Shown here: positions 3,606-51,720 of the stretch, piece after piece
How positions within the stretch are numbered: position 1 is the first letter of the stretch
Layout: each line of letters opens with the position of its first letter
Program-made: the position numbers and the translations under genes
The notes under the pieces: generated by a model
The model's database searches: none
What the model saw: only the letters and a program-made list of their open reading frames with translations
Told to the model about the DNA's origin: nothing
Source: a virus
Direction: 5' to 3' (one strand)
Virus genome (UHGV): UHGV-0279745
DNA: 64,000 nucleotides

Positions 3606-4454
3606 ATGTCTCTTACGTCAAAACAGAAACTGCTAAAACTCATCAACACTGAAAACAATATTGTTCCGCCATTGACCTTCAGTGATGTTGATATCGGCGA
3701 ACCTACTGGTACTAGGGTTGATACCCAGGTGGTTCTGACTTCTAAACTCAAAGGCGATGAGTCTACTACTTTAACAGTGACTTACCATCGTCGTAATTTG
3801 CCCGAATACCTAACAGGTGAATTGGTATTCGGTAACGACGGTGTTGTAACCGCTACAGATTTGCTTAATGCAATCAACGCAAAATACGATTTAAATATCC
3901 TGCCGTCGGATATCGTTGATGCGAAAGTTGAAGGTGAAACCCATCAGCTTACCGCTAACGAGAAATCCTACGAATGGTGTGGCGAGGTGACACTTACGCT
4001 ACGCGATCCTATTGATCTGGCTAAACTGTTACCTGTTACTCAATTAGAAAACCTGGTAGAGTATCCGTCCACTAAGAAAGGTAACGCAGCGGTTTATTCT
4101 TATCCAATTGACTTCACCGCAGAAAAAGATTACCTCGATCCGATTACCATTAACGACACTGTCGACCTGGCTGAGTTAGCCACTAAACTGGTCAACGTCG
4201 TTGATGAGAAATGGGTAAGCGTACCTAAAAACGCTGCTAATAACCTCTACGGTGCTAAGGTTATCTACGATGGCCCTACCGCAGGTTACGAAGGTGCAAA
4301 TACGAAGTACACGCGTGTGCTGGTACTCGCACTCAGTGGACTGTGTGCTAACCTGACCGGTAATCTGTTAATCCACTTTAACGGTACCGATCGTCCGAAG
4401 TCGAAGATTGAATTAGCTAAAACTAATTCGGTCTTACCGGGATTCTTAGATTAA
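3606..4454 (+). CDS. hypothetical protein (282 aa), distant member of the NTK(V/I)T paralogue family
   Basis: ORF; N-terminal pattern similar to the 4468, 7608 and 8215 genes. Confidence 0.65.
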   Translation: MSLTSKQKLLKLINTENNIVPPLTFSDVDIGEPTGTRVDTQVVLTSKLKGDESTTLTVTYHRRNLPEYLTGELVFGNDGVVTATDLLNAINAKYDLNILPSDIVDAKVEGETHQLTANEKSYEWCGEVTLTLRDPIDLAKLLPVTQLENLVEYPSTKKGNAAVYSYPIDFTAEKDYLDPITINDTVDLAELATKLVNVVDEKWVSVPKNAANNLYGAKVIYDGPTAGYEGANTKYTRVLVLALSGLCANLTGNLLIHFNGTDRPKSKIELAKTNSVLPGFLD

Positions 4455-4467
4455 GAGGATTACAGTA

Positions 4468-4944
4468 ATGACCAGTCAAGAAACTATCTTCGACCTTATT
4501 AAAAAGGCTAACCCAGACGCTGAGCTTGACACCGCCAAAGTTACATTGGGTGAGCCCGTCGTAAGTACCGGTGCGTACAACACCGAAGTTACGGTTGCGT
4601 CAATTAAGAATCTCGGTTATGCTAATAAGCAAACGTTCCAGTATAACCGCATCGATGCAGGTTTGTATTTCCTCAACGTATTGCCGAAACTGTTAGTTGA
4701 ATCAGCCACCACGACTGCGGACCTGTTGCCTGTAATTAACGAACAATATGGCTTAACCCTTACTGAAGACGACGTATGGGTAGAGCAGGTTGGTGAGTTA
4801 CCGCTGGACGGCAGCGCAATCGAGCACGGCATTTTCTTCCGTCCTGAGTGCCTAACCTGGGTCGGTGGTTTTACAGTGCGCGTTGCGCGTAAACCGACTG
4901 TTGAAACACCGCCAGCTAATCCATCGCGCGCTAAGAAGAAATAA
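4468..4944 (+). CDS. hypothetical protein (158 aa), paralogue family member
   Basis: AAGAGGA RBS; terminator downstream. Confidence 0.7.
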   Translation: MTSQETIFDLIKKANPDAELDTAKVTLGEPVVSTGAYNTEVTVASIKNLGYANKQTFQYNRIDAGLYFLNVLPKLLVESATTTADLLPVINEQYGLTLTEDDVWVEQVGELPLDGSAIEHGIFFRPECLTWVGGFTVRVARKPTVETPPANPSRAKKK

Positions 4945-4948
4945 CGAC

Positions 4949-4982
4949 AGGGTGGGGTAATCCCACCCTCTTTTCTTTTTTT
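4949..4982 (+). terminator. rho-independent terminator
   Basis: agggtgggg-taat-cccaccct followed by T-run. Confidence 0.65.
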
Positions 4983-5005: not shown

Positions 5006-5596
5006 ATGGCCGAACGTTGGACTAAAGAAGGTATTATTGCTTCGAAAACAGATTTAGAAGGAGGGTACGTAAACGACCCTGACGATAAAGGTGGGGAAAC
5101 CTGTCACGGTGTAACACTAACAACTGCACGCGAATACGGGTATAAAGGGAGAATGAAGGATCTGACCCGTGCGCAGGCGTTTGATATTTACGATCGCGGT
5201 TGGTGGAAGAAACTTAAACTCGATGAGATTTTAGCTATCTCACCCTTACTCGCAGACCGGATGTTTGATTTTGCTATTAACTCTGGCCGCGTTAACTGTG
5301 TGAAATCGTTACAACGTATTCTGAACGTTTTAAATAACGAAGGGAAACTTTACGCAGATATTGACACTGATGGCGGTATGGGACCTAAAACGCTAGGTGC
5401 CCTGAATGCTTATCTGAATTACCGTAAAGACGAGGGGTTAGGCATCTTAATCTTTGCCTTAATCTCACACCAGGTAACTTACTACACAGAAATCTCCGAA
5501 AAGCGTAAGAAGAATGAAAAATTCGCTTACGGTTGGTATGCGCGTGTGTTCAGGGAAATGCCGGATTATGTGGCGAAGGCGGGGTTAGTAAAATGA
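5006..5596 (+). CDS. GH108-like N-acetylmuramidase with peptidoglycan-binding-like C-terminal region
   Basis: EGGYVNDPDDKGGETCHGVT motif typical of glycoside hydrolase family 108; RBS AAGAGGAG. Confidence 0.65.
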   Translation: MAERWTKEGIIASKTDLEGGYVNDPDDKGGETCHGVTLTTAREYGYKGRMKDLTRAQAFDIYDRGWWKKLKLDEILAISPLLADRMFDFAINSGRVNCVKSLQRILNVLNNEGKLYADIDTDGGMGPKTLGALNAYLNYRKDEGLGILIFALISHQVTYYTEISEKRKKNEKFAYGWYARVFREMPDYVAKAGLVK

Positions 5597-5697
5597 ACTG
5601 GTTTGCTAAACTCTTAGCACTATTGTGGAAAGCGTTAACGTCTGGACGGAAACGTAAAGACGAAAAGCGTGGGTACGAATTTTTCTGGTTTCTATAA
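5593..5697 (+). CDS. small cationic amphipathic peptide (34 aa), unannotated in ORF track
   Basis: ATGA start/stop overlap with muramidase gene; MNWFAKLLALLWKALTSGRKRKDEKRGYEFFWFL. Confidence 0.3.
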   Translation: MNWFAKLLALLWKALTSGRKRKDEKRGYEFFWFL

Positions 5698-5712
5698 GGG
5701 AAGGTGTGGGTA

Positions 5713-6378
5713 ATGGAGAAGCTTCAATATAAACGTTTAGACAATAAGTGGTTTGTATTAACGGAGGATTACCATTATCCGTTTACGTTACGTGAAATTT
5801 ATCACGACCACGTACACTTAGACCGTGCGGTTTATTTAACGGGTGTATTGCCTGACACACAACTGTGGTTAACGGCACCGAAAGGGTTCGTTACCGATTT
5901 AGCGTCGATTCCTGAACACCTCCAGGGAATTTTCCATCCTGACGGGCCGTGGGCACCTGCGGCCTGCATTCACGACCTACTCTATCAAAAATGCAGTACG
6001 GAACGTAGCTATCCCATGACACCGGGTGGTAACGTTTCGCGTATTATCGACAAAGAGTTTTCTGACTTAACGTTCCTGCGTATTATGCAGTCGTTAGAAA
6101 TCTCGCCTTATATCTGCCAAACATTTTATAAGGCCGTCGTTGAATTCGGCTGGGATTCCTACGTAGATCCTAATGCAAAGCCATCCTACAACACTAACGC
6201 GTTTCGTACGTTAGATTATAATCGAAACTATTTATTCGTTCGCGAGTTTAAGGAACCTGCAATCCCTGACCACGAACGTATTGATATCACCACAGATCAG
6301 CCCGTTAATGTCAAATACCTGAACATCAAACGTGCTTTTCTGTCTGGGAGGGAAGATGTTTCATCCAAATCCGAGTAA
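5713..6378 (+). CDS. hypothetical protein (221 aa)
   Basis: ATG at 5713 with GGAAGGTG RBS; conserved-looking TDLASIP and AACIHDLLY motifs. Confidence 0.65.
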   Translation: MEKLQYKRLDNKWFVLTEDYHYPFTLREIYHDHVHLDRAVYLTGVLPDTQLWLTAPKGFVTDLASIPEHLQGIFHPDGPWAPAACIHDLLYQKCSTERSYPMTPGGNVSRIIDKEFSDLTFLRIMQSLEISPYICQTFYKAVVEFGWDSYVDPNAKPSYNTNAFRTLDYNRNYLFVREFKEPAIPDHERIDITTDQPVNVKYLNIKRAFLSGREDVSSKSE

Positions 6379-6871
6379 CTTTAAACTCAAAGAGTTAGTA
6401 CCACAGTCTTATATTGCCAAATACGGCGATTCTGCAATTCGGTTTATGAATCCGTTGTTAATGATTTCGCTACAACAGATTCGTAACCGTTTCGGTAGAA
6501 TGGTGATTAACTCGCCTGCTGCGCAACAGCGTGGCCTAAGAACCTTAGACTTTTTCATCAACCAAGAAAAGCCTAAAGGCGGTAACTATAAACAACGTGC
6601 TTTACAACTCTACTCTGATTCGGGGAGTCAGCACAAGTTCGGTAATGCGATTGATGCAACGTTGTTGGACAGTACCGTAAAGCAGGTTCACGACTACATC
6701 GCCGCTAACCCTGATGAGTTTCCGTTCATTCACTTTATTGAATGCGACATCAGTTGGTTACACATCGACGTTCGTAACCAACCTAACATTACTTTCTGGT
6801 CACCAAATCGAGGTACTGTGAAAGTGGTTAAGCAAAAACCAATCGACTGGAGCTCCTTAGTCGAGATTTAA
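6356..6871 (+). CDS. peptidase M15-like (VanY / L-alanyl-D-glutamate peptidase-type) cell-wall hydrolase
   Basis: SQHKFGNAIDA (SxHxxGxAxD) and WLHIDVR motifs; GGGAGGGAAG RBS before internal ATG. Confidence 0.6.
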   Translation: MFHPNPSNFKLKELVPQSYIAKYGDSAIRFMNPLLMISLQQIRNRFGRMVINSPAAQQRGLRTLDFFINQEKPKGGNYKQRALQLYSDSGSQHKFGNAIDATLLDSTVKQVHDYIAANPDEFPFIHFIECDISWLHIDVRNQPNITFWSPNRGTVKVVKQKPIDWSSLVEI

Positions 6872-6955
6872 CTATTTCTAAGGTGTTTATACCTTATTTT
6901 GTATAAAGACGCTTAGAATGCGTTCTACGCACGATTTGACGGTTAAAATGAATAT

Positions 6956-6994
6956 ACCCTACTCCTTATCGGGAGTAGGGTAGTTTTTATTATT
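6956..6994. terminator. bidirectional terminator between convergent genes
   Basis: accctactcc-ttatcg-ggagtagggt followed by tttttattatt. Confidence 0.6.
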
Positions 6995-7469
6995 CCGCAG
7001 GATGGAGCATTGTTCCGGTGTCAGGAGCTACACCTTCTTTACAGTGGAAGAAAGTAATGCCTTTACCATCACCCGTTTTATATTCTAAAGTAGAATACGC
7101 AAACGTTGGTGTTTTTGAAAGTAACCCATTTACACGGTAGTAACGTTGCCCCGTGATAGGATCGATATTTCCATTAACTTTACCTAATAAATCTTTATAA
7201 AGTTGGGGTGACTCAATCTTACCATTTGGCCAAGTGGCTACCCAGTTAGCGCCAGTATCGATCACAGTTACTGAACCTAACATTAGGTTAGTCGAACTAA
7301 CGACAGGTTTGTAATTTACAAAATCCTGCTCTACACCCATACAGGTGTAAATAACCATGTCGTGTGGCTCTACGGGTACAGTTGAGAATTGGCCGTTAGC
7401 GGTGGGTTGTAAAGCACATCCTGCTAATGAAAAAACACCAACCATAGCGATAAGAAAACGTTTTAGCAT
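6990..7469 (-). CDS. putative lipoprotein (159 aa)
   Basis: N-terminus MLKRFLIAMVGVFSLAGC with lipobox LAGC; start taken at internal ATG. Confidence 0.6.
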   Translation of the reverse strand: MLKRFLIAMVGVFSLAGCALQPTANGQFSTVPVEPHDMVIYTCMGVEQDFVNYKPVVSSTNLMLGSVTVIDTGANWVATWPNGKIESPQLYKDLLGKVNGNIDPITGQRYYRVNGLLSKTPTFAYSTLEYKTGDGKGITFFHCKEGVAPDTGTMLHPAE

Positions 7470-7607: not shown

Positions 7608-8144
7608 ATGGCTAAAGCTTTCAATCTGCAGCTCATTGAAGCTGTTAAAGCTAAAAACCCAGACACTGCGTCTAAACTGACCGTAGAAGACGTTGATTTT
7701 GGCGCTGTTGCTGCGTTCAGCGGCAAATCTGGACGTAATACTAAAATTACGCTGACTGCAAAAGAAAAAAGTGCTAACTTTACCGGCAGCAAAGAATTCC
7801 ATTATATCCGTCTGGCATCCCAAGACCTGATCGGTGCTAAAGCTTACCAGCAGGAAGGTAGCCTCGAACTGGAAAACGCTGCCATTGTAGCCAAACTGAA
7901 CGAAGAGATGGTTACTAAAGGTTATGTAGATGACGCGTTTGCAGAAGGCGAACTCACCATCGAAAAATCTGATGGCGAAAGCGGTGCTAAAGTTTACACC
8001 GTTAAAGTAAACGATGCGCACATCAAATTCTTAGCCGGTACCATTGCCACCTTCACCTATACCAACCCGGTTCCTCCGAAGGTAGCTCTGAGCGGCCTGG
8101 AAGGTGAACTGGATAGCTTCACCGCTCCGGGTATCGGGGGCTAA
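7608..8144 (+). CDS. hypothetical abundant protein (178 aa), paralogue of 8215-8745
   Basis: Strong RBS; biased codon usage; own terminator; NTKITLTA and GELDSFT motifs shared with 8215 gene. Confidence 0.75.
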   Translation: MAKAFNLQLIEAVKAKNPDTASKLTVEDVDFGAVAAFSGKSGRNTKITLTAKEKSANFTGSKEFHYIRLASQDLIGAKAYQQEGSLELENAAIVAKLNEEMVTKGYVDDAFAEGELTIEKSDGESGAKVYTVKVNDAHIKFLAGTIATFTYTNPVPPKVALSGLEGELDSFTAPGIGG

Positions 8145-8153
8145 GTAAGTTAA

Positions 8154-8188
8154 ATCGGGGAGGGGGTAACCTCCCCGATATTTCTTTA
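8154..8188 (+). terminator. rho-independent terminator
   Basis: atcggggagg-loop-cctccccgat followed by T-rich tail. Confidence 0.6.
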
Positions 8189-8214
8189 ACTCGTACTATT
8201 AAGGATTTAAGATA

Positions 8215-8745
8215 ATGGCAGCTACTAACCAGATGATGTTGGTCGCGCTTTATAATGCTGCTAACACTGAGCTACCACATCAGATTACTGATAAAGAAGT
8301 GTCCTTTGGTCTCCCTACTGCGCTGGAAGGCGAAGGTAAGAATACCAAAGTTACCATGACTGCACTGCCGGGTTCTGAGAATTTCAAAGGCGCAATCGAA
8401 CTGAAATACGATCGTCTGGAGCCGGGTGTTGTAGGTCGTATTGAGCTAACTGACGATCTGTCTCGCTGGGTTCAAGAAAATGAACTGCGCGCTTGGTTAC
8501 AATATTACATCAACAAAGTAAAACCTGACGACGCTATCGCACCAGCTGACGTTGTGTACAACACCGAAGACCAGAAAGACGAACATGAAAACGTCACTCT
8601 GCGTACCGTGACGTGCACCGTTACTGAAAGAAACCTCCGTTATAAACCAGGTGTAATGGCAACTTTCGTAATTACGCCGAAAGTTGTTGATAATCGTATT
8701 GACCTGGCCACCACCAACGGCGAGCTGGACGGTTTTACGTCCTAA
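8215..8745 (+). CDS. hypothetical abundant protein (176 aa), paralogue of 7608-8144
   Basis: AAGGA RBS; NTKVTMTA and GELDGFT motifs. Confidence 0.75.
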   Translation: MAATNQMMLVALYNAANTELPHQITDKEVSFGLPTALEGEGKNTKVTMTALPGSENFKGAIELKYDRLEPGVVGRIELTDDLSRWVQENELRAWLQYYINKVKPDDAIAPADVVYNTEDQKDEHENVTLRTVTCTVTERNLRYKPGVMATFVITPKVVDNRIDLATTNGELDGFTS

Positions 8746-37562: not shown

Positions 37563-37955
37563 GTGAAAATGAATATCAGAACTATACTTTATACCATCAT
37601 TATTTTCTGTGCGGTCGGAATTACTGGCACTTATGCTTTCGGTGATTCAGATGTCCGTTATTACGAACCGGCTCCTGACTCACCGATTATCAACCCGGAT
37701 GAGACGCCTACGTTAATGCGCAGTTTCGGTAAACTACAAGTTTATCGTTTAGTGCGTGGTGAAACGTGTACGGGATTACTCATTGCTGACACCCGTGCAC
37801 AAGTCTACCAACGTCTGACGGATATCGCCTGCGAACAACCAAAAGTCATGTCAGTTAGTATCCATCCGCTATCAGTTGGTAACTATACCGCTGTGGACTT
37901 CTTTCACAACGCCGAATTAATCGGACGTGTTACCTTAAATCGCCCTGCTGAATAA
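37563..37955 (+). CDS. small secreted protein (~130 aa) with signal peptide; start uncertain (GTG 37563 or ATG 37569)
   Basis: N-terminal hydrophobic segment TILYTIIIFCAVGITGTYA. Confidence 0.65.
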   Translation: MKMNIRTILYTIIIFCAVGITGTYAFGDSDVRYYEPAPDSPIINPDETPTLMRSFGKLQVYRLVRGETCTGLLIADTRAQVYQRLTDIACEQPKVMSVSIHPLSVGNYTAVDFFHNAELIGRVTLNRPAE

Positions 37956-37973
37956 TCTAAAGGAGTAGTTATA

Positions 37974-38459
37974 ATGAAACGTTTACACACATTGATGTTC
38001 TTTCTGGTTTTCTTGTTTATCGGTGTCACGCCAACTGTAGATGCGGCCTCCGTAGACGAATTGCTTACCTGCGATGGAAACGCTTGGGAAGGTCAGCCAA
38101 ATGCGTGCCCAAACATCAACGACTTGTACGATACCGATAAGTCGTTTAAAGCCGTTGTTGATAAAACATTAGACCCTGTGGGACTGGATGGTATGTTCGG
38201 CTCTAAAGGTTACATGGATGGCCCTGGTGGTAACATGTATCCGGTAAACATCAACAACAAAATCTGGATTGAAAGTGGCGGTTGTAAAGCTAACGCTTGT
38301 GGTTGGGAATACATCGTAACGCTATACAACCCACACACCAAGAAACTCGTCGGCTATTACTACAACATCGACCCCGGTTATCTGATTTGGTTCGGTGATA
38401 TCGGTGTTGCCGAATTCGCTTACCTGGTTAAGAAATACGTAGAACAATCTAAATACTAA
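37974..38459 (+). CDS. small secreted protein (161 aa), 4 Cys
   Basis: MKRLHTLMFFLVFLFIGVTPTVDA signal peptide; AAAGGAG RBS. Confidence 0.7.
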   Translation: MKRLHTLMFFLVFLFIGVTPTVDAASVDELLTCDGNAWEGQPNACPNINDLYDTDKSFKAVVDKTLDPVGLDGMFGSKGYMDGPGGNMYPVNINNKIWIESGGCKANACGWEYIVTLYNPHTKKLVGYYYNIDPGYLIWFGDIGVAEFAYLVKKYVEQSKY

Positions 38460-38470
38460 GGACTTTTATC

Positions 38471-38881
38471 ATGAAAACTATCATCAATACTCTTCTCATT
38501 GCAATGGCTGTTCTGTTCTCTGTCAACGCTACAGCAAAAACAATACAGTTGCCAGACAATATTAAGTACGTCAATAGTACCGATGATTTCTATTGTACGG
38601 AAATTGACGGGTTGTACTGCCAGGCGAAAAGCCTGTTTAAATACAAAGGTAGCAGATACGTATTCATCGTTGAGCAAGGTGGTGCCTGGTGCTACGACAG
38701 CCCAATGTCCGTACTCAACCTCGAAACGTGGAAGGCTCAGCGTCTCGAATACAACGACAAACGTCTGTGCTCTGGTAATAACAAACCATTCTTCGAAGTC
38801 GTAGATGGTGTGCCAATGGTAGGGATATTAGACACTTCGGAAAAACCTATCGTTGTAGCTATGGATAAACTTAAAATTTAA
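38471..38881 (+). CDS. small secreted protein (136 aa), 4 Cys
   Basis: MKTIINTLLIAMAVLFSVNATA signal peptide. Confidence 0.7.
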   Translation: MKTIINTLLIAMAVLFSVNATAKTIQLPDNIKYVNSTDDFYCTEIDGLYCQAKSLFKYKGSRYVFIVEQGGAWCYDSPMSVLNLETWKAQRLEYNDKRLCSGNNKPFFEVVDGVPMVGILDTSEKPIVVAMDKLKI

Positions 38882-38891
38882 GGAGTAACTC

Positions 38892-39281
38892 ATGCGTCTC
38901 GTCTGCGTTTTAGCATTCTTCTTCTCCCTGAGTGTAGCAGCATCTACTCAAGTTAACGATTTACTGCTAACCCCAAACAACAATACCGATTACCAGTACA
39001 ATCCTCCGGGGTTTGAAGTTTGTGAAGTCGGTGAAACAATCTGCCAAGAAGTCGGCGCAGACGGGCGCTATATTCTGGTAAAAGCTGATGGTGGCACAAT
39101 GTGTCCCGCAGGTTATTACTTTCTGCTCGATTCCGTCGCAAGAGAGGTTCTTCCTATCACCACGAAAACGTGCGACCCTACCGTTGTCTTAACTCTCGCT
39201 AAAAGCAAATCTCGCGACCGTTATCTGATCGTTATCGAAGAACGGGGCAAGATGGCTGGTGCTATCGAATTAGATCATTGA
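38892..39281 (+). CDS. small secreted protein (129 aa), 4 Cys
   Basis: MRLVCVLAFFFSLSVAAS signal peptide; AAGGAG RBS; terminator downstream. Confidence 0.7.
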   Translation: MRLVCVLAFFFSLSVAASTQVNDLLLTPNNNTDYQYNPPGFEVCEVGETICQEVGADGRYILVKADGGTMCPAGYYFLLDSVAREVLPITTKTCDPTVVLTLAKSKSRDRYLIVIEERGKMAGAIELDH

Positions 39282-40569: not shown

Positions 40570-43074
40570 ATGCTAAAAGTTGAACGGATTATACTCAAAG
40601 GTTTTACGGGGATGGGATTACATGAAATTGAAACCTTCGATTTCACTATCCAGTCTCCGACAACAATTATCCTGGGTGGGAACGGCTGCGGGAAAACCAG
40701 TCTACTGTCTGTGTTCCTACCCTTAGCACCGGCTAAAACCGAATTCAGGGACGGCGGTTCTTACACAAACTACTGTTTAGTTGGCGATCAACGCTATCGT
40801 TTCAAAGTTGCCCGTAAAGGCAACTCTTTGGTTTGCGATATTGAGAACCTGACCACGGGGGCAAAGATCGTCGAGCAAGGTAATGCGAAAGTCTACAACT
40901 CCCGTGTTGAAGAAATCACAGGTATTACAAAAGAGATTAAAGAATTATTAAATGGTGAGGTGTTGTTAACCGATGCGGGAACCGAATTACGCCGCAAATG
41001 GTTTTACCGTTTAAGTACCTCTGATCTCACTTACGCGTTAGGGTTTTATCAACGTTTACGTAAAAACCTTACTGCCTTAAATGGGGGTATTGAAATCACC
41101 AGCCGTAAGATCGCCGAATTACGGACGCGTGTTATTGAGAACGAGGAAGAACGGCAGCAGTTAGCGACGAGATTAAAAGGTTTGGAATCGGATTTACGTG
41201 AACTGAACCGAGAAATCGAACAGTTACCAGGATTAAATCGTGCCGTCACCATCGAAACAATCCAAGCGTTATTAAACAGCTTGGGTCCAACCATCGACGC
41301 AATATTACAACATCGTGGTGGATTGCCTACTGATGAACAGATACTGGCCGCGCGACAAAACGAAGCGACGGCCCGCGAAGCCGTCGTGTCTACTGAAACA
41401 GAGGTATCGATGTTGAATAAAGACTTGTCGCTACTGATGGATGAGTCGACACGACAAGACTACCTGATGCGGAATCACGAAGGTCTCAAGAATACACTGG
41501 CACGTTTACGTGAGTTACTTACCAAATGGGACACCGAGCATCTCTTTCCGGGTTTATTTAACGACAACATCAATTTAGACCAACTTCGTGCGGCTACCGA
41601 CGCGCGTGTTTGGGGGCAACGGTTAGGAACAACACTGGACGCAATTCATTCAACCGAAAAACTTAATGTTTTGGAAGAACGGCTTCTGGTGATGGATCAA
41701 AAAACCGCAGGGTTGCGGGATAGACTCCAGCGAGTGGAGAACGTTTTACAGAATTTAAATCACGAACGTAATCACTACTTAGAAACAGCGGAAGTGGATT
41801 GCCCGCAGTGTCGGTTTAAGTTCCGTCCTGGCGTTACGCGTTCTTTACCTGAACTTGAGTCTTCGATTCGCGGACAACAACAGCAGCGCACGGAACTGCA
41901 AACGCAGTTAGAGACTCTATTACGCGATCGTGTTGAGTTAGAATCCGATGTAACTTATATGCGGCAGGTTCGTGAGATTGTACTGACGTATTCAAAGGAC
42001 CCGGTATTGAGCATGTTCTTTAAGCGTTTGCAAGAACGTAACGTTTTCACAGAATCACGTGAACAGTTCGGGAGTCTATGCGCAGCGTTTGACAGTGAGT
42101 TGTACTCTGCTATTGAGTACCATGAAACCCGTCAACGGTTAGTGAAGGCGGAAAAAGAATGGCAGGATGCCGTGGCGGCCGTTGGTAACGTCGATGGTGC
42201 TTTACAACAGAAAATTGCTTTCCAACAGTCACGATTAGGTAAAGCCACAGAGATGCTCTCAATGCGTCGTAGAGAGTACGAACTGGCTAACACGACACTT
42301 ACCTATCTGGTGAATGTTAAACGTGCTGTAGATGATTTCAGTGCGTTATTCGAACGGTTAGAGAGTGATGTTAAGGTTACGTTGACAAATACGGTCGTCG
42401 AGGAACTCTTACGTGCACGAGAAGGGAAGCTGGATGCTTTTACAACCGCACGCGAACGTTATCGTCAGATGGAAAATGAATTGAATCAGCTCAACAGTTT
42501 GGAACGCGAACTTGCTGACTTACAAGCCCAGCAATTCAATAACAAACTGATGATTCAAGCCTTCTCTCCAGAAAAGGGTGTACTTAGAAAGTATTTTTAC
42601 AACGCTATCGTTAGAATCACAGAGTTAATGACGCGTTATATCGAACAGGTCTGGACGTACCCCATGCGCGTTATGCCTTGTGACCTCACTGACGGCGATT
42701 TGGATTATACTTTTCCTGTCCAGCTAAAAACGCATCCTGAGCCTGTTCCTGACGTGCGTAAAGGGTCTAAGGCGCAGCGTGCGATATTTAATCTGATGTT
42801 CAGGCTGACTGCGTACAAAGCGCTGAAGTTGCATCAGTTTCCGTTGCTTTTGGATGAGCCTTCGGAAGGCATGGATGAGGAGCACCGTAACAACCTGGTC
42901 GGTTTTATTAAAACGTTAGCAAACTCGGGAGAATTTTCCCAACTGTTGGTAGTCTCCCACGAAGCCGAGGTTCATTCTAAACTTAATGAAGCATCGTACT
43001 GTGTCATCGAACCGGAAGGGGTGACATTGCCTGCGGTGTATAACGAAGGAGTAAAAATTGTTTATGCAAACTGA
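40570..43074 (+). CDS. SbcC/Rad50-like recombination ATPase (835 aa)
   Basis: Walker A GGNGCGKTS, long coiled-coil middle with CPQC zinc-hook-like motif, Walker B LLLDEPSEGMD, VSHEAE H-loop region; GGAGGTG RBS before ATG 40570. Confidence 0.8.
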   Translation: MLKVERIILKGFTGMGLHEIETFDFTIQSPTTIILGGNGCGKTSLLSVFLPLAPAKTEFRDGGSYTNYCLVGDQRYRFKVARKGNSLVCDIENLTTGAKIVEQGNAKVYNSRVEEITGITKEIKELLNGEVLLTDAGTELRRKWFYRLSTSDLTYALGFYQRLRKNLTALNGGIEITSRKIAELRTRVIENEEERQQLATRLKGLESDLRELNREIEQLPGLNRAVTIETIQALLNSLGPTIDAILQHRGGLPTDEQILAARQNEATAREAVVSTETEVSMLNKDLSLLMDESTRQDYLMRNHEGLKNTLARLRELLTKWDTEHLFPGLFNDNINLDQLRAATDARVWGQRLGTTLDAIHSTEKLNVLEERLLVMDQKTAGLRDRLQRVENVLQNLNHERNHYLETAEVDCPQCRFKFRPGVTRSLPELESSIRGQQQQRTELQTQLETLLRDRVELESDVTYMRQVREIVLTYSKDPVLSMFFKRLQERNVFTESREQFGSLCAAFDSELYSAIEYHETRQRLVKAEKEWQDAVAAVGNVDGALQQKIAFQQSRLGKATEMLSMRRREYELANTTLTYLVNVKRAVDDFSALFERLESDVKVTLTNTVVEELLRAREGKLDAFTTARERYRQMENELNQLNSLERELADLQAQQFNNKLMIQAFSPEKGVLRKYFYNAIVRITELMTRYIEQVWTYPMRVMPCDLTDGDLDYTFPVQLKTHPEPVPDVRKGSKAQRAIFNLMFRLTAYKALKLHQFPLLLDEPSEGMDEEHRNNLVGFIKTLANSGEFSQLLVVSHEAEVHSKLNEASYCVIEPEGVTLPAVYNEGVKIVYAN

Positions 43075-43243
43075 TTGGTTCCGTCGTATTGTGGATGCGG
43101 TAGGGTTTGGCTTCATGTCCATTTTAGCGGTTCTTTATGTCATGTTTTGTGTGGTGATGATTTTATGGGTAGTTTCATCTTATCTGATTAAACTATCGTG
43201 GGGTTCAATTTGGCGTCAACGCGAATGCGAATGGCGGAATTAG
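43064..43243 (+). CDS. small membrane protein (59 aa)
   Basis: Hydrophobic core FGFMSILAVLYVMFCVVMILWVV; overlaps SbcC-like gene end. Confidence 0.45.
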   Translation: MQTDWFRRIVDAVGFGFMSILAVLYVMFCVVMILWVVSSYLIKLSWGSIWRQRECEWRN

Positions 43244-43253
43244 GAGAGGGAAT

Positions 43254-43352
43254 ATGGTTGTAGGGGTTCTGTTAACACTTGGCTCGTTGTGGTTAATTGG
43301 TAAAGGTTTAAACTGGCTGATTAAACGTCACCGTTGGGCGTTCGAAGATTAA
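43254..43352 (+). CDS. small membrane peptide (32 aa), not in ORF track
   Basis: TAGGAGAGGG RBS 3 nt before ATG; MVVGVLLTLGSLWLIGKGLNWLIKRHRWAFED. Confidence 0.4.
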   Translation: MVVGVLLTLGSLWLIGKGLNWLIKRHRWAFED

Positions 43353-43409
43353 CCACCCAAATAATCCAGAAGATACCCTCCGGTGTGAGGGTATTGACAG
43401 GAGCAGAAA

Positions 43410-43538
43410 ATGACCACGATAAACGCTACGAATGTAGCGATATCCGCACTATACGACGCGGAACTTTCATGGGGTGGATTAATAATCACCACAGCCATAT
43501 TAGCCGCTGCGGCTTTCGTCATCGCGCGTTGGTTTTAA
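43410..43538 (+). CDS. small membrane peptide (42 aa), not in ORF track
   Basis: AGGAGCAGAAA RBS; hydrophobic C-terminal half GLIITTAILAAAAFVIARWF. Confidence 0.4.
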   Translation: MTTINATNVAISALYDAELSWGGLIITTAILAAAAFVIARWF

Positions 43539-45235: not shown

Positions 45236-45335
45236 ATATTATCATTAGGGCACACAACAAAGGAGTATTAGCTGTCCGCGCCGTCATTTCGTCTTACGGA
45301 ATACGGAAATGTATAAATCCAACTGGAGAAACAAA

Positions 45336-46034
45336 ATGTTTCGTATCTTCTTTCTTTTACTGGTAACACTTTTCGCGTTTAACGCACAGGCGTCAACGTC
45401 AACGCCACATTCTAAGCATCAGCGTGAGTTTGCACAAATCCAACATCGGTTCGAAAAAGTCAGCCCGTTAATTGTGGAAATCTCACGAAAGCAGGGCGTT
45501 GATCCCAAGCTGATGATTACGCTGATTTATCGTGAATCGCGTTTTGATCCCAAGGCTTACAACAAAAGCTCACGAGCACATAGCCTGGTACAAATGCTTC
45601 CAAGTACCAAACGTAATCTGCTAAAGCTTTATGGAAAAGAATTAGGTCTTAGTCAGAACGCCGATTTGTATAATCCGCGCAACGCTGTTTTGCTGGCTAC
45701 CGCGTATGTTAAACATCTTGAGAAGGGGTTAACCAAACGACTCAAACGCAAGCCCACCATGGCTGAAATTGCGTTAGCTTACCACTGGGGTGAAAGTGGC
45801 GCTCACACGCGAATCAAAAGCAAATCTCGAGCAGCACAACGAGAAATGGCAGGCTTTATGAAAGACGCCGCGTTCTATAGCGCGAAAATCGATGTGCCTG
45901 TTGTTGTGGGCTCGGCCCCACGTCAGCTTGCGTTTGCGAAGAAAACACCACGTCAGATTCAACTGGCGGAAGTTAGTAGAATTTGGGATACGATAAACAC
46001 GAGTTTTCCAATCAATAGAGGAGTTACCCTTTGA
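45336..46034 (+). CDS. secreted lytic transglycosylase (SLT-domain) protein
   Basis: Signal peptide MFRIFFLLLVTLFAFNAQA; YRESRFDP, SLVQMLPST and AYHWGESG motifs typical of SLT domain; GGAGAA RBS. Confidence 0.65.
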   Translation: MFRIFFLLLVTLFAFNAQASTSTPHSKHQREFAQIQHRFEKVSPLIVEISRKQGVDPKLMITLIYRESRFDPKAYNKSSRAHSLVQMLPSTKRNLLKLYGKELGLSQNADLYNPRNAVLLATAYVKHLEKGLTKRLKRKPTMAEIALAYHWGESGAHTRIKSKSRAAQREMAGFMKDAAFYSAKIDVPVVVGSAPRQLAFAKKTPRQIQLAEVSRIWDTINTSFPINRGVTL

Positions 46035-46606: not shown

Positions 46607-47086
46607 ATGATAAAATTCATTTGGCGTTATCCAACGCGTTTTTGGTTTGTGGTACTTGAACTGTGTATGGTTCTTGTAGCGGTTACTTTTGTCGAAGCGC
46701 CCGCCTCGCAGTTGGCCATTTTCTGCCTTTTCGTGACTGTCCCTGTATGGGTGATTGCGAAGGCTATTAAGTTCGTCATGGTGTGTTGGGCGAATTATAC
46801 CTGTCCGTATAAGCCTAAACAAATCATGAAATGGCTGATGTATATTGAAGAACGTTTACCGGCGCAACATAAATTACTGGGCTGGTCGTCAATGTTGGAT
46901 ATTGCACTAGAAACCAATGCAAAGTTCCCCGGTGCGAAAAACCCTTATTTGTTGATGGCGGTAATTGTTGCACAACAAAAACTGGTGGGTGACCGTTGGT
47001 TGCCAGAAGAAGCGAAAGCGTATATCCGTAAACATCCAAAAGCTTTTTACTCGGTAGGACAATGGCGTAACTTGCCATTATTTTAA
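46607..47086 (+). CDS. membrane protein (159 aa)
   Basis: AAAGGAGCAGAG RBS; multiple hydrophobic segments. Confidence 0.65.
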   Translation: MIKFIWRYPTRFWFVVLELCMVLVAVTFVEAPASQLAIFCLFVTVPVWVIAKAIKFVMVCWANYTCPYKPKQIMKWLMYIEERLPAQHKLLGWSSMLDIALETNAKFPGAKNPYLLMAVIVAQQKLVGDRWLPEEAKAYIRKHPKAFYSVGQWRNLPLF

Positions 47087-50757: not shown

Positions 50758-51261
50758 ATGGGTTCATTTTTTAAAGTGCTTCCGTTCTTCCTTCAGATGT
50801 TAATGGAAGCATTTAAACCAGGAGAAGGAGAAAACGTATCAAGAGCAAGCAAGATAATGACTTTAATCATCACGATCTTGTTGTCGTATTCTGGCTTCGT
50901 CTCCTACGCCTATGTACAACAGTTTCACGCGCTCGTTGCAGTGCAGTCTCATGACACTTATATGTCGCAGTCTTACCAAGAGATGAAACAAGATCGAGAT
51001 AAACTAAAAGAAGATAATGGGAAGTTATACGACAGGCTCTTCGTTTGCCTCGGCCAGAAACCGCCATATGAAAGCACGTTTAATTCATCGAAAGCGAGCG
51101 GTACGGCGAAGGATCTGTCTTCGACAAAACCAGAAACTCCTGTTAATCCAGCTTCAACACCAGAACAACGTAAAGAGGCTTCGGCGAGACCTGTTGGCAA
51201 TTTAAATGCGAACAGTTTTCGACAGGAGATCATAAAGACGCTAACGTCTTCTAAGGAGTGA
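50758..51261 (+). CDS. hypothetical membrane-anchored protein (167 aa)
   Basis: GAGGTGA RBS; N-terminal hydrophobic segments. Confidence 0.65.
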   Translation: MGSFFKVLPFFLQMLMEAFKPGEGENVSRASKIMTLIITILLSYSGFVSYAYVQQFHALVAVQSHDTYMSQSYQEMKQDRDKLKEDNGKLYDRLFVCLGQKPPYESTFNSSKASGTAKDLSSTKPETPVNPASTPEQRKEASARPVGNLNANSFRQEIIKTLTSSKE

Positions 51262-51264
51262 TTG

Positions 51265-51720
51265 ATGAAAATGCTGTTATTCATCATGATGGTGTTCGTG
51301 GGGTTGGTGAGTAATAGCTACGGCGACGAAGTTAAACGTCCAGCTTATAGGCCACTGGAACTTCCTCCTACACCACCAATAATGGTGAATTGGAAAATTG
51401 ACAATAATGCAATGCGTGAGTATGTTGCGGATGTCAACACCTATGCTTACTACGTTTATGTCTACACCCGAAATTTAAACCAACAAGCCGTTAAACGTGG
51501 CTGGAGCCCACCAATGCTGGCTCCACTTTGTGAGCGTTATGAGTTACCGAAGTTACATGTTGTACCTGAACGCTTATCTCTTGACGAAAGCTCTTTAACG
51601 CCCCAGGAGATTAGCCGTGACCTATCGCGTAAACTCAATAATTTGTTGTGGAATTACCGTTCCGACCGTCAGACACTACTCGATTCGTATAACCAATACT
51701 TGACATCGTGTTTGTACTGA
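51265..51720 (+). CDS. secreted protein (~151 aa) with signal peptide
   Basis: AAGGAG RBS before ATG; MKMLLFIMMVFVGLVSNSYG. Confidence 0.65.
   Translation: MKMLLFIMMVFVGLVSNSYGDEVKRPAYRPLELPPTPPIMVNWKIDNNAMREYVADVNTYAYYVYVYTRNLNQQAVKRGWSPPMLAPLCERYELPKLHVVPERLSLDESSLTPQEISRDLSRKLNNLLWNYRSDRQTLLDSYNQYLTSCLY

Follow-up and report, generated by a model that had tools for sequence, protein, structure and literature searches.

The region at positions 5006–6871 of a 64,000-nucleotide stretch of the virus genome UHGV-0279745 (the window) is read here, with moderate confidence, as a late host-lysis module of an SPN3US-like jumbo phage, in which membranes would be attacked by a lipolytic enzyme and a small peptide and in which no holin is recognizable. 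Four open reading frames (ORFs), which an initial annotation made from the sequence alone had placed there, were all found on the plus strand, and that observation was confirmed as a whole. The ORFs and the hairpins that bound them are as follows.

4949..4969, plus strand: intrinsic-terminator-like hairpin with a 9-pair stem (6 GC pairs) followed by CTTTTCTTTT (T run); it ends the upstream DUF7941 gene and forms the 5' boundary
5006..5596, plus strand: predicted GH108 N-acetylmuramidase, 196 aa, homologue of SPN3US gp156
5593..5697, plus strand: cationic peptide, 34 aa, whose start overlaps the muramidase stop (ATGA)
5716..6378, plus strand: DUF1353 protein, 220 aa, with an ATG start and GGAAGGTG as Shine–Dalgarno sequence; homologue of SPN3US gp157
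6356..6871, plus strand: probable LAS/M15-type zinc peptidase, 171 aa, with GGGAGGG as Shine–Dalgarno sequence; homologue of SPN3US gp158
6955..6982, both strands usable: terminator-like hairpin with a 12-pair stem (6 GC pairs) followed by GTTTTTATTA on the plus strand; 3' boundary

The window derives from an SPN3US-group jumbo phage (Seoulvirus-related), and its gene order is colinear with SPN3US gp154–gp163. A near-identity DNA search of the phage collection returned no match to the cluster region, which shares 65–70% nucleotide identity with 75 jumbo-phage records from Erwinia, Salmonella, Cronobacter and Pectobacterium; proteins 95–98% identical to those of the cluster are encoded on five IMG/VR contigs of 107–225 kb. 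The M15-type gene starts 23 nt before the end of the DUF1353 gene, the minus strand of 5006–6871 holds short ORFs only, and the hairpin at 6955..6982 separates the cluster from a convergent lipoprotein gene. Because terminator hairpins bracket these closely packed or overlapping genes, the four co-directional ORFs look like one transcription unit. In the cluster region, scans for Rfam families and repeats found nothing besides the terminator hairpin, and a scan for sigma-70 promoters found fewer sites there than in shuffled sequences, a deficit that is expected because the phage uses its own RNA polymerases. Signal peptides and transmembrane (TM) segments are absent from all three enzymes, and no ORF within 5006–6871 reaches the TM threshold. 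A holin, sought as a small lysis-cluster protein with at least one TM segment, is therefore not seen in the cluster, as the initial annotation had remarked, and neither is a two-component spanin consisting of a TM i-spanin and a lipobox-bearing o-spanin.

The most informative gene of the cluster is the one that had been passed over as encoding an unknown protein. Its product (5716–6378) matches the DUF1353 family of Pfam at 54.4 bits (gathering cut-off 22.5, E 1e-14) and is a predicted phospholipase A2 (PLA2) homologue of the TtaP type. Translation most likely starts at ATG 5716 and not at the mechanical GTG 5704, because a 97%-identical homologue (P0038) starts MEKLQ. TtaP, a DUF1353 protein of 125 aa, was shown to be a PLA2 by Gartly et al. 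(J Biol Chem 2024, PMC11525133), who consider it a distant relative of the group XIV secreted PLA2s and assign it a catalytic His/Asp dyad plus a neighbouring Asp; it shares the typhoid-toxin islet with the muramidase TtsA, an outer-membrane-perturbing role is proposed for it, and the family as a whole counts more than 6000 proteins (PMC11525133). Across 33 homologues, residues H86, D87 and D117 of the window protein never vary, and they lie in an HDxxY context; their roles were equated with those of H70, D71 and D85 of TtaP from the published description (PMC11525133). Fold searches were needed because the Protein Data Bank (PDB) gave no usable DUF1353 or M15 match by sequence or profile: the DUF1353 protein and its profile found nothing there, and the M15 profile found a spurious match only. 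In these searches the DUF1353 protein showed the helical core fold of the group XIII/XIV secreted PLA2s; it is ~95 residues longer than TtaP, with extra beta elements at its N- and C-terminal ends. The label "tail assembly chaperone" that PHROG gives the DUF1353 family appears to reflect gene position in prophages and not any test.

The call of a GH108-like muramidase at 5006–5596 was borne out by profile searches, in which Glyco_hydro_108 scored 84.1 bits (gathering cut-off 21.2, E 1e-23) and a C-terminal PG_binding_3 domain 60.7 bits (cut-off 24.6, E 1.6e-16). The protein also matches the endolysin family phrog_315 (2.6e-43). Its best PDB matches are 6V40 (1e-44) and 6V3Z (5.7e-43), which the depositors' paper identifies as the typhoid-toxin secretion muramidase TtsA and its paralogue Sen1395, respectively. 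The match to the NCBIfam model "holin-associated N-acetylmuramidase" (8e-20) falls below that family's cut-off. The stretch LEGGYVNDPDDKGGET, containing the EGGY catalytic motif, aligns with the same stretch of TtsA, and the N-terminus is not hydrophobic. On these grounds the product is predicted to be a GH108 muramidase of the TtsA/phage N4 gp61 type.

The second hydrolase gene most likely starts at ATG 6356 (171 aa, as in the 97%-identical P0001). The window protein has no Pfam match at E ≤ 0.1, M15 families included; of 20 homologues, 13 hit Peptidase_M15_3 (best 6.8e-08) and 10 hit M15_4, and the window protein itself matches the endolysin family phrog_894. The LAS motifs SxHxxGxAxD and WxHxD are invariant (SQHKFGNAID and WLHID in the window protein), as are the zinc ligands and catalytic Asp, H93, D100, H136 and D138 (H-x6-D plus a downstream H). 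The model (pLDDT 91.8) has the LAS fold, with Foldseek matches that are weak and all from the M15 family. The earlier description as an M15-like peptidase was thus right at the level of motif and fold, though without a Pfam match of the protein's own, and the product is probably a LAS/M15 zinc peptidase and peptidoglycan stem-peptide hydrolase. Two enzymatically different peptidoglycan hydrolases, as had been noticed, are accordingly predicted in the cluster. Among deposited sequences, the "hypothetical proteins" P0027–P0031 of the Salmonella phages SPFM1, 5, 6, 8, 15 and 20 are permuted mosaics of M15-like segments; these records match the query in short pieces only and at another genome position, which suggests locally scrambled assemblies.

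The 34-aa peptide (5593–5697), whose ATG does overlap the muramidase TGA as ATGA, has the sequence MNWFAKLLALLWKALTSGRKRKDEKRGYEFFWFL, exactly as first noted, and a net charge of +5. It had been described as amphipathic and strongly basic, and helix analysis agrees: residues 1–18 form an amphipathic helix (hydrophobic moment, muH, 0.45; mean hydrophobicity, <H>, 0.39) with a narrow polar face (N2, K6, K13, T16, S17) and a broad hydrophobic one, followed by the basic cluster RKRKDEKR and the aromatic tail GYEFFWFL. TM analysis found no canonical segment (maximum Kyte–Doolittle (KD) hydropathy, KD17, 0.85). The six genomes compared from the window clade vary at 14 nucleotides of the ORF, 10 of which are synonymous in frame, and the ratio of nonsynonymous to synonymous polymorphism (pN/pS) is 0.08 in frame versus 0.81 and 1.16 in the other two frames; the amino-acid sequence of the peptide, and not merely its reading frame, is under purifying selection. 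As this ratio and same-position homologues across genera show, the ORF is a real gene. No phage record was matched by tblastn with the peptide, even at E 10, so the case for homology rests on synteny, DNA alignment and a shuffle test, in which the same-position "A" peptides of relatives (see below) scored 43–62 against 20 ± 4 for shuffles (0–1 of 5000 shuffles as good). A -1 frameshift extension of the muramidase was considered and rejected: the A_AAA_TGA context occurs in the window phage and in Asesino and is missing from SPN3US and pEa29, so independent coupled initiation is likelier. The disruptin candidate criteria in bioRxiv 10.1101/515445 are small size (<80 aa), charge of at least +4, a helical structure, no TM segment and a place in a lysis cassette; the peptide falls within the published size and charge cut-off, has no TM segment and adjoins an endolysin gene. 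Possible roles are those of a holin-like release factor, an outer-membrane disruptin or an anchor or regulator of the PLA2, and any one of these is held much less firmly than the lysis module overall.

Similar micro-ORFs fill the same gap in relatives. An ORF, here called A, starts on the muramidase stop in Seoulvirus (SPN3US, SPLA1a, pEa29, STsAS and Proteus phage 7) and in Erskinevirus (Asesino, phiEaH2), and encodes peptides of the form M(K)xNWFxxLMRAxWRALxFAxRRKRHD... with net charges of +5 to +7. Both genera also have an overlapping, out-of-frame second ORF, B (...DSGFFKLLRAIFFRRV), which is amphipathic and whose Shine–Dalgarno sequence is embedded in the RRKR codons of A; Seoulvirus adds a third, C, a 30-aa single-TM peptide that is annotated in a few records. 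The gap therefore holds one micro-ORF in the window clade (34 aa), two in Erskinevirus and three in Seoulvirus (A and B amphipathic, C single-TM). In the DNA alignment the window clade lacks the ATG of B and an internal stretch, and A reads in frame into the GFF motif of B and then stops; the 34-aa ORF is accordingly interpreted, from this alignment, as an A ORF fused to a remnant of B. In relatives A, B and C occupy the ~290-bp gap between GH108 and DUF1353, and A and B are unannotated in SPN3US. The description of the 34-aa ORF as unannotated held for SPN3US, but Asesino (gp172) and phiEaH2 (gp076) carry homologues as hypothetical proteins. The clade of ChrisDB, Caitlin and Huxley, together with two metagenomic clades, has no A ORF and encodes single-TM peptides of 33–52 aa in the same gap (KD 1.75–2.36). 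Tiny ORFs predicted to be membrane-active lie between GH108 and DUF1353 in every clade with GH108 at the locus, and none is found in the three loci without GH108 beside DUF1353 (Phobos, CR5 and Derbicus). For this reason such peptides are regarded, on comparative grounds, as a constant companion of the muramidase whose type varies. The initial annotation had noticed the small ORF but missed the further tiny membrane ORFs, single-TM ones included, in the same slot of relatives.

The surroundings of DUF1353 support a link to lysis in some lineages, though not universally. In jumbo phages DUF1353 adjoins at least one peptidoglycan hydrolase in all 23 loci, in three arrangements (GH108–small ORFs–DUF1353–M15, GH108–small ORF–DUF1353 and DUF1353–M15). 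In Fusobacterium-type phages it is part of a lysis cassette (endolysin–TM protein–DUF1353–holin), and a phrog_199 holin lies downstream of it in 9 loci among 39 small viral contigs. The bacterial homologues recovered belong to generally diderm phyla, one Chloroflexota excepted, the envelope type being inferred from record titles.

The lysis reading is preferred because the genes form a coupled unit of wall- and lipid-cutting enzyme families, the enzymes have no export signals, the peptide is a real gene within the size and charge cut-off for disruptin candidates, small ORFs accompany GH108 in the gap, DUF1353 is syntenic with hydrolases and sits within Fusobacterium lysis cassettes, and the SPN3US homologues are classed as non-virion proteins. 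It is preferred also because TtsA and TtaP co-occur and because SPLA1a has no annotated holin or spanin and no other annotated endolysin. Its complete PHROG-annotated genome (255 features) contains no product called holin or spanin, the label "endolysin" is given there to the GH108 and M15 genes of the cluster alone, and one "transglycosylase" is also annotated. Neither a holin nor a spanin is annotated or described in SPLA1a, in the records of other relatives or in a 2026 jumbo-phage review, which has neither word. According to the lysis reading, the unit would be expressed late and its three enzymes would accumulate in the cytoplasm. The peptide would breach or destabilize the inner membrane and let the wall hydrolases reach the murein, a step that in relatives would fall to the amphipathic and single-TM cousins in the same slot and might be aided by lysophospholipids and fatty acids made by the PLA2 from the cytoplasmic leaflet. 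The murein would then be cut at two bond types, the glycan strand by the muramidase and the stem or cross-link by the peptidase. The PLA2, the cationic peptide or both might weaken the outer membrane in a disruptin-like or LysB-like manner, adding to or replacing spanin function, which would also agree with the outer-membrane role proposed for TtaP. The earlier suggestion that lysis may use a non-canonical partner is still the best reading.

Several observations weigh against the lysis module as proposed, and they are taken up here together with the alternatives. The first alternative, which we regard as doubtful without setting it aside, is that the hydrolases are endolysins, that DUF1353 is a moron, lipid-modifying or tail-fibre factor, that the peptide serves mainly in translational coupling or regulation, and that holin and spanin are encoded elsewhere. 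Membrane disruption may indeed be independent of the cluster. A spanin-like pair lies at 50758–51261 and 51262–51720 (both plus strand): the first product combines a TM segment with a coiled-coil-like region and a Pro-rich tail, and the second has a signal peptide and a Pro-rich start. The lipobox cysteine is missing from the window copy of the second, which counts against this alternative, and the SPLA1a homologue is a lipoprotein with the lipobox LLTGC. Neither gene of the pair is labelled a spanin in any matching record. Seoulvirus, at least, may thus have a spanin-like system outside the cluster, and because of this unannotated pair the phage cannot be called spaninless. Holin candidates are possible among small TM ORFs on the plus strand, namely three consecutive ORFs after an SbcC-like gene at 43058–43538 (61 aa with two TM segments; 32 aa with one, phrog_13448; 42 aa with one) and a 159-aa protein with two TM segments at 46607–47086. 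An SLT lytic transglycosylase at 45309–46034 (plus strand; Pfam 8.8e-15) has a cleavable-looking N-terminal signal peptide (...FNAQA↓S); it is a third predicted peptidoglycan-cleaving enzyme, and its predicted export would be independent of any holin. A lysis cassette elsewhere, which the initial annotation had named as the finding that would tell against its idea, is thus absent from the annotation of SPLA1a, but the window does hold the unannotated spanin-like pair and the secreted SLT enzyme.

The wider distribution of DUF1353 and the published genetics count against the lysis module, and its prophage position and the genetics also favour this alternative. The two genes upstream of DUF1353 in the 39 small viral contigs are most often tail-fibre (~11 loci) or endolysin (at least 6 loci) genes. 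DUF1353 follows tail-fibre and Tfa genes in Citrobacter prophages, where its position, judged from gene order, is moron-like and unlike the jumbo-phage and Fusobacterium-phage contexts. In those of Citrobacter braakii (L115, L140) the protein is of TtaP size (117–127 aa) and is encoded at the prophage end, with an invertase-type recombinase adjoining in one. GH108 was found within 4 kb of DUF1353 in 1 of 80 bacterial loci, and adjacency of the two as a general rule was rejected on that count. Deletion of ttaP in S. Typhi gave no envelope phenotype (PMC11525133). Against the lysis module, too, the peptide differs from classical cationic antimicrobial peptides in its much greater hydrophobicity and weaker amphipathicity (muH 0.45 versus 0.89 for LL-37). 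Set against the alternative, DUF1353 stays beside hydrolases through the three jumbo-phage arrangements and lies inside the Fusobacterium lysis cassettes, the peptide sequence is under purifying selection, and the peptide family co-occurs with GH108.

A second alternative, which we think improbable, is that the enzymes are borne by the virion in head or tail and digest wall and membrane locally at injection, possibly acting on the inner-membrane-derived early vesicle of nucleus-forming jumbo phages. Head-protein genes surround the cluster: four DUF7941 paralogues, corresponding to the "paralog family B" head proteins of SPN3US, flank it at 3606–4944 and 7608–8745 (plus strand), and one SPN3US member of that family, gp160, has been estimated at more than 300 copies per capsid. 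The 2017 virion list of SPN3US includes gp157 as a low-abundance "Head" protein (4 unique peptides, SC/M 0.37), and in 2016 gp158 was found in some samples, where tailed particles contained it and tailless ones did not. A place after tail-fibre genes is common for DUF1353, which carries the chaperone label mentioned above, and SPN3US-type phages make lipid vesicles early in infection. In the 2023 SPN3US proteome of dual-gradient virions, however, gp156 and gp157 gave 2–3 peptide-spectrum matches (PSM) and gp158 8–10 PSM per replicate against ~6700 for the capsid protein, and gp156–gp159 were classed as non-virion, with PSM similar to thymidylate kinase. The better-purified 2023 data set overrides the 2017 "Head" call for gp157, and the low counts are compatible with abundant late cytoplasmic proteins sticking to particles. 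Moreover, gp156 is missing from the 2017 list, no enzyme of the three is fused to a structural domain, free endolysins usually have the architecture of GH108 with PG_binding_3, and the preprint on the early-infection vesicle names no phospholipase. The proposal of virion-associated entry lysins made in the initial annotation was consequently not upheld.

A third alternative, a non-lytic and type-10-secretion-like local opening of the envelope for release, as by TtsA in the typhoid-toxin islet, is suggested by the closest solved homologue of the muramidase (TtsA) and by the membership of TtaP in DUF1353 but is highly improbable: the genome is that of a virulent-type jumbo phage, toxin cargo is absent from the neighbourhood, the second hydrolase and the cassette architecture fit lysis, and TtsA and TtaP are themselves considered prophage-derived (PMC11525133).

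The cluster read as a lysis module was also compared with known systems. Orthologues in the same order are found as SPN3US gp156–158 and across Seoulvirus and Erskinevirus, with protein identities of 59–64% for GH108, 58–63% for DUF1353 and 76–79% for M15. The flanking head-protein paralogues and the convergent lipoprotein gene are shared as well, whereas the M15 gene is missing in Erskinevirus. As with the lambda-type holin–endolysin–spanin cassette, a compact late cluster would surround a cytoplasmic endolysin that needs a membrane lesion; unlike that cassette, the window cluster has no TM holin and no lipoprotein/TM spanin pair and instead has two predicted hydrolases and a putative phospholipase. 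The mycobacteriophage LysA/LysB pair unites a wall hydrolase and a lipid-cleaving enzyme, the latter directed at the outer lipid layer during lysis. As a serine esterase/cutinase, LysB acts on mycolyl-arabinogalactan in a different type of host envelope, and its fold is unrelated to that of a His/Asp PLA2. The typhoid-toxin islet likewise unites the TtsA muramidase and TtaP DUF1353 families, and the H-D...D of the PLA2 family is kept in the window protein. It differs in that TtaP has 125 aa against 220 aa for the phage protein, that toxin is exported from a living cell and that neither an M15 peptidase nor a small peptide is present. In phiKT (gp27–gp28–gp29) a small cationic helical peptide without a TM segment is encoded directly after the endolysin gene, as in the window, but a recognizable holin is present there and none in the window cluster. 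The phiKT disruptin gp28 (56 aa, +7, hydrophilic, encoded between endolysin and holin; bioRxiv 10.1101/515445), compared by description, is unlike the window peptide (34 aa, +5), whose hydrophobic face is broad and whose tail is aromatic.

Two further groups of genes were noted in the window. On the minus strand at 6990–7469, a 159-aa predicted outer-membrane lipoprotein (lipobox LAGC, Ala at +2, family phrog_9559) is encoded by the only lipobox ORF of the whole window, on the strand opposite to the cluster. The gene adjoins the cluster in 20 related jumbo-phage loci, with its orientation flipped in some, and its SPN3US homologue is the non-virion gp159. It was rejected as an o-spanin because it is too large, lies on the opposite strand and has no TM partner, and it may have a role in superinfection exclusion or receptor masking. 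Farther away, at 37563–39281 (plus strand), four consecutive ORFs of ~130–160 aa, each with a hydrophobic, signal-peptide-like segment at its start, resemble a small family of proteins that are secreted or periplasmic.

The component families are known, and the cluster is present in published genomes without a described function. What is new is the reading of the middle gene as a PLA2, the recognition that a set of micro-ORFs, conserved though variable, is coupled to the muramidase, and the proposal, which we infer and tie to TtsA and TtaP, that jumbo-phage lysis includes a membrane step carried out by a lipolytic enzyme and a peptide. A targeted literature search found no PLA2 lysis factor described for phages of Gram-negative hosts. 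Should the lysis reading fail, what is left is an ordinary two-endolysin locus accompanied by accessory genes. How jumbo phages lyse their hosts is poorly understood, and confirmation would add PLA2 to spanins and disruptins as a third class of membrane-disrupting lysis factor; it would also point to a role for the large DUF1353 family and for the unexplained fifth gene of the typhoid-toxin islet. The bundle of muramidase, peptidase, lipase and membrane-active peptide could also be of interest for enzybiotic design against Enterobacteriaceae. A broader proposal, offered tentatively, is that enterobacterial SPN3US-group jumbo phages lyse their hosts by a partly enzymatic route directed at lipids, in which a cytoplasmic DUF1353 PLA2 and tiny cationic or single-TM peptides replace the classical holin, the spanin or both by opening the inner membrane to the endolysins, rupturing the outer membrane or doing both, and that TtsA and TtaP are a domesticated remnant of such a cassette. 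Were this true, the remnant origin would give TtaP its missing biological role.

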